Positions 33,717 to 36,444 of a stretch of DNA of 37,763 nucleotides are shown one piece after another; position 1 is the first letter of the stretch; each line of letters opens with the position of its first letter. This stretch comes from a virus (lineage: Duplodnaviria > Heunggongvirae > Uroviricota > Caudoviricetes): the IMG/VR virus record IMGVR_UViG_2522572023_000009. One strand, written 5' to 3'. The translations under genes were made by a program, and so were the position numbers. The notes beneath the pieces are model-generated. The model had not been told where the DNA came from. It made no database searches and saw nothing but the letters and a program-made list of their open reading frames with translations.

Positions 33717-33994
33717 ATGGCAATCAAAAAACTCGATGATGGTCGATATGAAGTGGACATCCGCCCTACTGGACGTAACGGAAAACGCATCCGTAGGAAG
33801 TTTGATAAGAAAAGCGAAGCTGTCGCTTTCGAAAAATACACGTTGTACAACCACCACAATAAAGAATGGCTATCAAAACCAACAGACAAACGACGTCTGT
33901 CGGAACTGACACAGATCTGGTGGGATTTAAAGGGTAAACACGAAGAGCATGGGAAATCTAATCTTGGAAAAATTGAAATCTTCACAAAAATAAC
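33717..33994 (+). pseudogene. int: int, N-terminal fragment (codons 1–92) of the tyrosine integrase, interrupted by an IS66-family insertion
   Basis: MAIKKLDDGRYEVDIRPTGRNGKRIRRKFDKKSEAVAFEKY... The reading frame runs into the IS terminal repeat and stops at 33996–33998. Confidence 0.85.
33987..33994. repeat. 8-bp target-site duplication AAAATAAC (left copy)
   Basis: An identical octamer lies at 36437–36444, immediately outside the IS terminal inverted repeat. Confidence 0.85.
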
Positions 33995-34031
33995 GTAAGC
34001 GTACAGCGAGGGCCGTATTGACGGGGATGTG

Positions 34032-35570
34032 TTATTCAGCTGGCAGTGCTATGCGCCACGGAAGCAGTTCGCTGACCCGGTTGACCGGCCAGTCTGCTAT
34101 GACGCCAAGCACATGGCGAAGGTAGCTTTCTGGATCCACGTCATTCAGTTTGCACGTCCCGATCAGGCTGTACAGTAGCGCTCCCCGCTCACCACCATGG
34201 TCAGAGCCGAAGAACAGGAAGTTTTTACGACCCAGACTGACCGCCCGCAGGGCATTTTCAGCGATGTTGTTGTCGATTTCCACCCAGCCATCGTTCGCAT
34301 AGTACGTCAGTGCCGGCCACTGGTTAAGTGCGTACGCGAACGCCTTCGCCAACTCTGAGTGTCGCGACAGGGTCTTCATCTTTTCACGCAACCAGCTTTC
34401 CAGGGATTTCAACAGCGGTTTCGTTTTTCGCTGACGTTCAGCAAGCCGCTGCTCTGCCGGCATTCCCCTTATATCCGCCTCTATGGCGTACAACTGACCG
34501 ATCTGCTCCAGGGCTTCTTCCGTCAGTGCTGACGGGATGCGGACGTGCACATCGTGGATCTTTCGGCGGGCATGAGCCCAGCAGGCAGCTTCCGTTATCC
34601 GACCATTGCGATACAGCTCGTTGAACCCGGCGTACGCATCCGCTTGCAGCACACCGCTGAAGCAAGCAAGATGAGTCTGCGGATGGATGCCTTTCCTGTC
34701 CGGGCTGTAAGCGAACCACACTGCAGGTGCCAACGCTGACCCGGCATTGCGGTCATCACGAACATACGCCCACAACCGCCTGGTCTTCGTCTTCTTATTA
34801 CCCGGCAGCAGTACCTGGACCGGGGTATCATCGGCATGGAGTTTGCCGTCAGTCATGACATAGCCATGAAGCGCCTCTTCCAGCGGAGACAGCAGCCGGC
34901 AGCATGCATCCACCCAGCCCGACAGCAGTGAACGCCTCAGCTCCACACCTTGCCGGCCGTATATTTCTGACTGGCGATACAGCGGGGTGTGCTCTGCATA
35001 CTTCGAGGTCAGCACGCGGGCCAGCAGCCCCGGTCCGGCGATACCCCGCTCGATGGGCCGCGAAGGTGCAGGTGCCTGCACGATGGCATCGCACTGAGTA
35101 CAGGCATGTTTTTCCCGTACCGTCCGGATAACCCGGAAGGCGCTACGCATCAACTCCAGCTGTTCGGCGGTATCCTCGCCCAGATAGCTCAGTGAACCGC
35201 CGCAGTTCGGGCAGCACGGCGCCGCAGGCAACAGTCGCTTTTCGTCACGGGGTAGTGATTCAGGGAACGGCTTACGGGTGCGGGTCTGACGCAACGGACG
35301 CTGTACTGCCGGGTCATACACCCTACCAGTCAGCGTATCGCTCTCTTTCTGAAGCCGGTTCAGATCGGCTTCCATTTGTGCGATACGGCGGGAGACTTTT
35401 TCGGAACGACTGCCGAAGTTCATCCGGCGGAGTTTATCCAGCTGCGCCTGCAGATGGTCTATTTCGCGCTCCCGGTTGCTCAGCTTTTCCTGCAGGGCGT
35501 GGATCAGCGCTTCCTGTTCGGCCAGGCGCTGTTTCAGCAGGAAGATGTCGTCAGAAGAGATGTCGTTCAT
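34032..35570 (-). CDS. tnpC: IS66-family transposase TnpC (orf3), 512 aa
   Basis: N-terminal leucine-zipper-like region ([30 protein letters not shown]...) and size are typical of IS66 orf3. Confidence 0.85.
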
Positions 35571-35619
35571 AAGCCCGTATTTTACCGGGCTTATTCTGTG
35601 ACAACCAGGATAAAGAGAT

Positions 35620-35967
35620 TTACAGCATGGTCAGGGAGGTCAGCAGCCGCTTAGGCTGTCGCCAGTCGATACCTTCCAGCAGCATCGCCAGCTGCGCCTG
35701 CGTAAGGAACACTTTGCCATCACGGGCTGACGGCCAGGCGAAGCGCCCACGCTCCAGCCGTTTGGTCAGGAGGCACAGCCCGTCACCGGTGGACCACAGC
35801 AGTTTAACCTGACTGCCGCTGCGGCCCCGGAAAATGAAAACATGGCCGGACATGGGATCGTCTTTCAGCGCCGTCTGTACTTTCGCAGCCAGGCCGTTGA
35901 AGCCATTTCTCATATCGGTGATACCGGCAACCAGCCAAATTTTGGTCCCGGAAGGTAACGGGATCAT
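35620..35967 (-). CDS. tnpB: IS66-family accessory protein TnpB (orf2), 115 aa
   Basis: [30 protein letters not shown]... is typical of IS66 orf2. Confidence 0.85.
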
Positions 35968-36365
35968 CGCTTCAGTTCCTGTATCAGCAGAGTCAGGAGC
36001 TTTTCGCTGACATTGCCATTGAAGCGGAGCGTCCCGTGCCGGAACGTTACCTCACAGCTGATACTGAGGGTTTCCGGGTCCTCTGCGAGCGATTCTGGCT
36101 GTTCGGCAGCTGCATCGAGAGTCACAGGAAGTAGCTGGGGGCTCTCTGAAGAAGGTAATAGCAGCTTTCCCTCGCGCCATTGTTGTCGCCATTTGAACAA
36201 CAGATTGGCGTTAATGCCATTTTCAAGAGCAAGTTTTGAGATGGATATCCCGGGTTCACAGGAGGCAGCAACGAGCTGCTGTTTAAATTCGGGAGGATAA
36301 TTAGGGCAGCCTTTTCGCCTGCCGGGAGTCACATTTTTCTGCATATCTGACACTTTGGTTCCCAC
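35964..36365 (-). CDS. tnpA: IS66-family accessory protein TnpA (orf1), 133 aa
   Basis: Position and size are typical of IS66 orf1, and it overlaps orf2 by 4 nt. Confidence 0.8.
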   Translation of the reverse strand: MGTKVSDMQKNVTPGRRKGCPNYPPEFKQQLVAASCEPGISISKLALENGINANLLFKWRQQWREGKLLLPSSESPQLLPVTLDAAAEQPESLAEDPETLSISCEVTFRHGTLRFNGNVSEKLLTLLIQELKR

Positions 36366-36436
36366 TACTTATTTGGTGGACACCACTTTGTCTAATTCGT
36401 CAGATTCTGACCAGACGGTTCAGGCTGTACGCTTAC

Positions 36437-36444
36437 AAAATAAC
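36437..36444. repeat. 8-bp target-site duplication AAAATAAC (right copy)
   Basis: Matches 33987–33994. Confidence 0.85.

Follow-up and report, generated by a model that had tools for sequence, protein, structure and literature searches.

Genomic setting of the prophage

The analyzed window, a stretch of 37,763 nucleotides, corresponded by sequence match to positions 2625549-2663311 of Escherichia coli O145:H28 RM12761 (NZ_CP007133.1) and ran between the starts of yegQ and yegR. RM12761 is the 2007 Belgian ice-cream outbreak strain, and RM13516 is its clinical twin. A P2-type prophage was integrated between yegQ/cyaR and yegR and bounded at each end by a 27-bp P2 att core; for RM13516, a P2-like element of 35,739 bp at yegQ-yegR was catalogued as Prophage 09 by Cooper et al. 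2014 (PMC3893438 supplement). The prophage contained a collinear P2 gene set (Q P O N M L X Y K … FI FII E T U D ogr / int C cox B A), as is typical of P2-like prophages (Peduovirus), and 37 of the 42 P2 proteins used as queries were matched at full or near-full length with 65-100% identity. Four others, fun(Z), orf91, tin, and old, had no match in the prophage, and the match to K was split over two frames. The late region was 96.6% identical to P2 at the nucleotide level, all P2 essential genes except K were full length, and the cargo of the prophage included a Lamassu anti-phage system. An Rfam scan of the whole window recovered CyaR alone, with no structured RNA in the integrase region or the insertion sequence (IS) described below.

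The endolysin gene K contained a frameshift caused by the loss of one G from a GGG run near position 17864, and the gene is annotated as “frameshifted” in RefSeq. Among the top-ranked of the 1486 genomes carrying this segment, only RM12761 and RM13516 matched it without a gap. This frameshift represents a second lesion of the prophage, beside the one in int and not part of the original observation, although in principle it could be a homopolymer error shared by both assemblies (GGG to GG), despite the use of Illumina data.

Structure of the interrupted integrase gene

The integrase gene of the prophage was present in two plus-strand pieces, a 5′ fragment at 33717-33994 (nucleotides 1-278 of a P2-type int), annotated in RefSeq as “site-specific integrase, incomplete, missing C-terminus,” and a 3′ fragment at 36445-37180 (nucleotides 279-1014), annotated as “phage integrase, incomplete, missing N-terminus.” The two pieces were separated by a 2442-bp IS and one copy of an 8-bp duplication, leaving int without an uninterrupted frame and hence a pseudogene. 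Joined end to end, they formed 1014 nt, or 337 codons and a stop, in agreement with the original prediction that removal of the IS and one repeat copy would restore a 337-codon integrase. The assignment to the P2 type was equally well founded, as the restored protein aligned to P2 Int with 336 of 337 identical residues (99.7%), the sole change being T264 in place of M. The original prediction had also placed the interruption after codon 92; the interruption itself was evident, but the break lies after nucleotide 278 and thus within codon 93. The first base of the IS, a G, supplies the third position of an ACG codon (Thr93) and is followed directly by TAA at 33996-33998, giving a truncated 5′ open reading frame of 93 aa at 33717-33998.

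In the restored protein, Pfam placed Int_N at residues 57-156 and Phage_integrase at residues 164-308, an arrangement characteristic of heterobivalent tyrosine recombinases. Integrases of the P2 type bind the arm sites through their N-terminus and have a catalytic C-terminal domain (PMC3448106). The arm-binding N-terminus and the initial third of the core-binding domain were left in the 93-aa stub; the 3′ fragment comprised the remaining core-binding domain and the entire catalytic domain. The first in-frame Met of the 3′ fragment would yield residues 133-337 only, and a consensus scan found no plus-strand promoter ahead of this fragment, with the total number of sites below the expectation from shuffled sequence.

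A natural empty site was available for comparison in a sister prophage in strain PSUO2, which is located at the same yegQ-yegR site and shares the early region and the cargo beside gene A with the RM12761 prophage. The PSUO2 int was uninterrupted and identical to the restored gene over 1014 of 1014 nt. Since the two agree at every position, the IS and its 8-bp duplication are the only change in int. A single copy of the 8-bp sequence AAAATAAC occurred at the uninterrupted site in both PSUO2 and P2.

Identity of the inserted element

The inserted element occupied 33995-36436 and was a complete 2442-bp ISEc8 of the IS66 family, with full-length 100% identity to many annotated copies; its transposase genes are encoded on the minus strand. 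The length, the family, and the guess that the element would prove to be ISEc8 had all been given correctly in advance; the name itself was assigned through copies that RefSeq calls “IS66-like element ISEc8 family.” Three predicted transposase-operon open reading frames were each supported by IS66-type Pfam domains. On the minus strand, tnpC (34032-35570) encodes a 512-aa DDE transposase (DDE_Tnp_IS66, E 5e-106, 354.7 bits against a cut-off of 23.1, together with zf-IS66, LZ_Tnp_IS66, and DDE_Tnp_IS66_C), tnpB (35620-35967) a 115-aa IS66 accessory protein (TnpB_IS66, E 1e-38, 131.4 bits against a cut-off of 26.6), and tnpA (35964-36344) a 126-aa accessory protein with a helix-turn-helix (HTH_Tnp_1, E 2e-12). 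The tnpA and tnpB genes overlap by ATGA at 35964-35967, as read directly from the sequence.

Termini of the GTAAGCG type are typical of the IS66 family, and insertion of its members duplicates 8 bp of target. Imperfect inverted repeats starting with GTAAGCG were present at the tnpC-proximal (33995-34016) and tnpA-proximal (36415-36436) ends of the element; both termini read GTAAGCGTACAGC, a perfect match over 13 nt, and the repeats extended to 22 nt with 82% complementarity. Copies of AAAATAAC at 33987-33994 and 36437-36444 directly abutted the two IS ends, bearing out the reported perfect 8-bp direct repeat. Because AAAATAAC occurs only six times in the 37.8-kb window, counting both strands together, two copies exactly flanking the inverted repeats are not attributable to chance. 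Gene order, domains, termini, duplication size, and sequence identity were therefore all those of an IS66-family element and of ISEc8 in particular. With all three open reading frames and both ends intact, this copy is probably active.

Attachment sites, repressor, and cox

The regions involved in site-specific recombination were intact on both sides of the prophage. The int-proximal 27-bp core (37260-37286) and the ogr-proximal core (1507-1533) were perfect repeats of one another. At the int-proximal end, positions 37122-37286 were 100% identical to P2 attP over 165 nt, including the core, the Cox boxes, and the P′ arm, and at the other end positions 1507-1659 matched the P-arm side of P2 attP with 97.4% identity. 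The P′ arm Int-binding site at 37153-37171 consisted of two TGTCCACA repeats, starting at 37153 and 37164, which correspond in reverse complement to the arm consensus of P2, tgTGGaCa (PMC3448106); this site overlaps the 3′ end of int. A cognate P2 att site with core and arm repeats adjoins the interrupted gene.

Upstream of int and untouched by the IS, the plus-strand gene at 33302-33601 encodes the C immunity repressor, a 99-aa protein in which Pfam recognized a helix-turn-helix only and no peptidase domain. The excision directionality factor Cox is encoded by an intact gene on the minus strand (32905-33180; Phage_Cox, E 2e-42). On the P2 map, int lies downstream of C and is transcribed with it from Pc, and the same arrangement was present here. 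Since C was only 65% and Cox only 84% identical to their P2 counterparts, the immunity type probably differs from that of P2. P2-type prophages do not undergo SOS induction (PMC2669165), and mitomycin C would be poorly suited to induce this one because its C repressor has no peptidase domain. The intact att sites at both ends could leave the prophage open to excision by an Int provided in trans, and with cox intact as well, such an Int should still work.

Distribution and authenticity of the insertion

The P2 int type of this prophage was present in 763 of 5426 complete E. coli genomes and a near-full-length ISEc8 match in 3375 of them. Each of the two IS/int junctions was found in just two of the 5426, RM12761 and RM13516. 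A common int type with a junction restricted to two strains points to a recent insertion private to one lineage.

An assembly artefact, in which a copy of ISEc8 was misplaced into a truly intact int during repeat resolution, would have been encouraged by the roughly nine ISEc8 locations in the chromosome, by the partly in silico finishing of these genomes, which drew on 454, Illumina, and PacBio CCS reads, and by the general tendency of multi-copy IS elements to be classic sites of misassembly. However, a perfect 8-bp duplication positioned exactly at both inverted-repeat ends is the signature of transposition and is not what a collapsed or misjoined repeat leaves behind; moreover, RM12761 (food) and RM13516 (clinical) are isolates of one outbreak, each assembled from its own 454, Illumina, and PacBio data, and their junctions are identical. 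The 454 data included 8-kb paired ends, and such libraries span a 2.4-kb IS. Misassembly is very unlikely, to the point that we regard it as negligible, in view of the exactness of the duplication and of the two assemblies having been made separately.

Two other strains carried an IS within or beside the same int type. MSI001 contained a different IS66-family element, with a larger tnpA, inserted after approximately codon 208, and TUM14664 contained IS903B between C and a full-length int. The idea that the insertion site within int is a recurrent hotspot for IS66-family elements was rejected, as the elements and positions in MSI001 and TUM14664 differ; for the same reason, IS hits in this int type appear random.

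The disruption is already visible publicly, as RefSeq shows two pseudogene pieces around ISEc8. In Cooper et al. 2014, which lists the prophage and counts ISEc8 copies, no mention of an int disruption was found (PMC3893438). In the part of the Nakamura et al. 2020 supplement that gives integrase sequences, the sequence for this site begins with the Met inside the 3′ fragment (ATGTTTACAGCC…); in the passages of that study that were consulted, the disruption is not flagged.

Functional consequence and alternative explanations

We propose that ISEc8 transposed into the int gene of the P2-type prophage in the O145:H28 lineage of the 2007 Belgian outbreak and that this event duplicated the 8-bp target AAAATAAC. 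Transcription from Pc, through C and then int, would now give only the 93-aa N-terminal stub, stopped within the IS end, and two thirds of the core-binding domain together with the whole catalytic domain would be stranded beyond 2.4 kb of oppositely oriented IS. The prophage would thus have lost its own recombinase while retaining C immunity, Cox, its cargo, and the two att sites. We assign a probability of about 0.93 to this overall explanation, in which the ISEc8 insertion split int and grounded the prophage. The loss of autonomous excision in particular, which the original prediction had drawn from the split gene, is a sound reading of the domain architecture and very probably correct, because the insertion at residue 93 falls within Int_N, ahead of the catalytic domain. 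The window contains no other annotated integrase, and no second copy of the int type was detected in the RM12761 chromosome at megablast sensitivity, its 3′ part occurring in one place. Autonomous excision, already rare in the non-inducible P2-type prophages, should have been abolished; the additional stabilization may be small, as P2-type excision is rare even with an intact int.

The split gene could still be silent with respect to mobility if the prophage were excised by an Int acting in trans, provided by an incoming P2-type phage or by some other element, or if the IS were frequently and precisely lost. The substrate for such events is present: the att cores are perfect, identity to P2 attP is 97-100% across the adjoining arm, Cox, and IHF regions, and exact loss of the IS across the 8-bp repeats, with one repeat copy, would restore the wild-type int sequence exactly. 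However, IS66-family elements are not known to excise precisely with any frequency. An int type found in 763 of 5426 genomes makes it plausible that a phage carrying a matching Int would superinfect, and defective EHEC prophages are rescued by other prophages (PMC2669165), but the chromosome itself yielded no second copy at megablast sensitivity, a homo-immune superinfecting phage would have its early genes blocked by C-mediated immunity, and the K frameshift would hamper lytic release even after excision. Continued mobility by either route is accordingly considered unlikely.

Alternatively, the stub might have been co-opted, with the 93-aa product expressed from Pc occupying the arm sites, either those of its own prophage or those of P2-type phages entering the cell, and acting in a dominant-negative manner to lock in the prophage and its Lamassu cargo. 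The stub does keep the N-terminal arm-binding region and still follows an intact C within the Pc operon, and a prophage-borne defense system may be worth keeping; nevertheless, an insertion limited to one outbreak clone gives no support for selection, and the other IS hits in this int type involve different positions and different elements, as random hits would. Co-option is therefore regarded as highly improbable, and we give just as little credence to the related proposal that the stub is dominant-negative against the Int of incoming P2-type phages and that the insertion was a selected locking step in the domestication of a Lamassu prophage. Under the preferred reading, the ISEc8 insertion would instead be one step of ordinary prophage decay and the K frameshift a second.

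The original observation was accurate, apart from the codon at which the frame is broken, and its interpretation was essentially right for what is an ordinary case; no result spoke against the structure as described. In practical terms, the split gene explains why Prophage 09 in the O145:H28 clone of the 2007 Belgian outbreak is best regarded as non-excising and probably non-productive, with its cargo, including Lamassu, vertically inherited in practice. The locus is a very clean example of IS-mediated grounding of a prophage because the pre-insertion sequence exists in another genome, and it carries little weight beyond strain annotation and touches no open question.

Comparison with known systems

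The element is indistinguishable from the ISEc8 of EHEC O157:H7, O145:H28, and many other E. coli, with which it shares its 2442-bp length, 100% identity, the tnpA-tnpB-tnpC order, the IS66 domains, and termini starting with GTAAGCG; the element itself is unchanged, and what sets the RM12761/RM13516 clone apart is the site of insertion, within a P2-type int. The restored integrase is one residue apart from P2 Int (337 aa, NC_001895 P2p31) and is encoded at the same place, downstream of C and beside att; unlike the P2 gene, that of RM12761 is interrupted within codon 93 and is a pseudogene. MSI001 and TUM14664 likewise have a P2-type prophage at the yegQ-yegR site, with an IS lying either in int or next to it, but the elements and their positions are unlike those of RM12761. 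A further parallel is provided by the well-described group of grounded prophages that includes Sp3, Sp11, and Sp12 of O157:H7 Sakai, which are also EHEC prophages with a disrupted int, predicted to be non-excisable and retaining their cargo (PMC2669165). In contrast to these lambdoid elements, the RM12761 prophage belongs to the P2 type and is nearly complete in other respects, and its int carries a single clean IS lesion for which the exact pre-insertion sequence is known.

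Cargo loci of the prophage

Two positions at which P2 carries cargo genes are occupied in the prophage. A three-gene Lamassu system, identified with PADLOC, fills the old/tin position in the Q-A interval (window 25346-28755, minus strand), and comprises LmuA (27847-28755; E 9e-30), LmuC (27369-27833; E 2e-23), and LmuB (25346-27367; E 1e-98), all encoded on the minus strand and all annotated as hypothetical proteins in RefSeq. When the Lamassu locus and the early region were used together as a query, at least 28 complete genomes matched at least 80% of it, including PSUO2, which carries a sister prophage at the same chromosomal site and was 99.9% identical to the query. 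In the FI-G interval, the Z/fun cargo position (8687-9686, plus strand), fun(Z) is replaced by a 70-aa ORF and a 270-aa protein of the LPO_1073/Vpar_1526 family, neither of which had a match in PADLOC, whereas PSUO2 has an HNH endonuclease at this position.

IS insertions at int and a probable lesion in K

Independent IS insertions were present in strains MSI001 and TUM14664, whose prophages share this prophage's int type and its chromosomal site. In MSI001 (4018-7743 of its locus), an IS66-family element different from ISEc8 splits int after about codon 208; in TUM14664 (1603-4097 of its locus), IS903B sits between C and int and may separate int from Pc. The P2 endolysin gene K (window 17727-18223, minus strand) contains a 1-nt deletion near 17864, GGG to GG, that breaks the gene into two parts read in separate frames, residues 1-120 and residues 121-165. 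The K segment occurs in 1486 genomes, and of the highest-ranking ones only RM12761 and RM13516, isolates from one outbreak, matched it without gaps; the deletion is a second inactivating lesion of the prophage, or possibly a homopolymer error common to both assemblies.

Attachment site and flanking host DNA

The ogr-proximal att core (1507-1533) overlaps the 3′ end of the CyaR/RyeE sRNA gene (1445-1530, plus strand; Rfam, 100.7 bits), and the end of this gene is therefore supplied by the phage core after integration. Host DNA directly beyond the int-proximal core (37287-37340) is similar to a shortened P2 P-arm region and has ATGCATAA and CATTGACCACATCGA in common with 1534-1605; this P-arm-like stretch may be the scar of a previous P2-type occupant of the site.

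Comparison with P2

Identity to P2 is 99-100% for int and the att region, but the C repressor (33302-33601, plus strand) is only 65% and Cox (32905-33180, minus strand) only 84% identical to their P2 counterparts; the prophage therefore probably has an immunity type other than P2's, and its regulatory region is mosaic. The G protein is 90% identical to P2 G, and matches between the tail-fibre gene product H (10562-12487, minus strand) and P2 H are limited to the N-terminal 251 residues (95%) and the last 65 residues (80%); the module for host range is a mosaic, a usual feature of P2-type phages.
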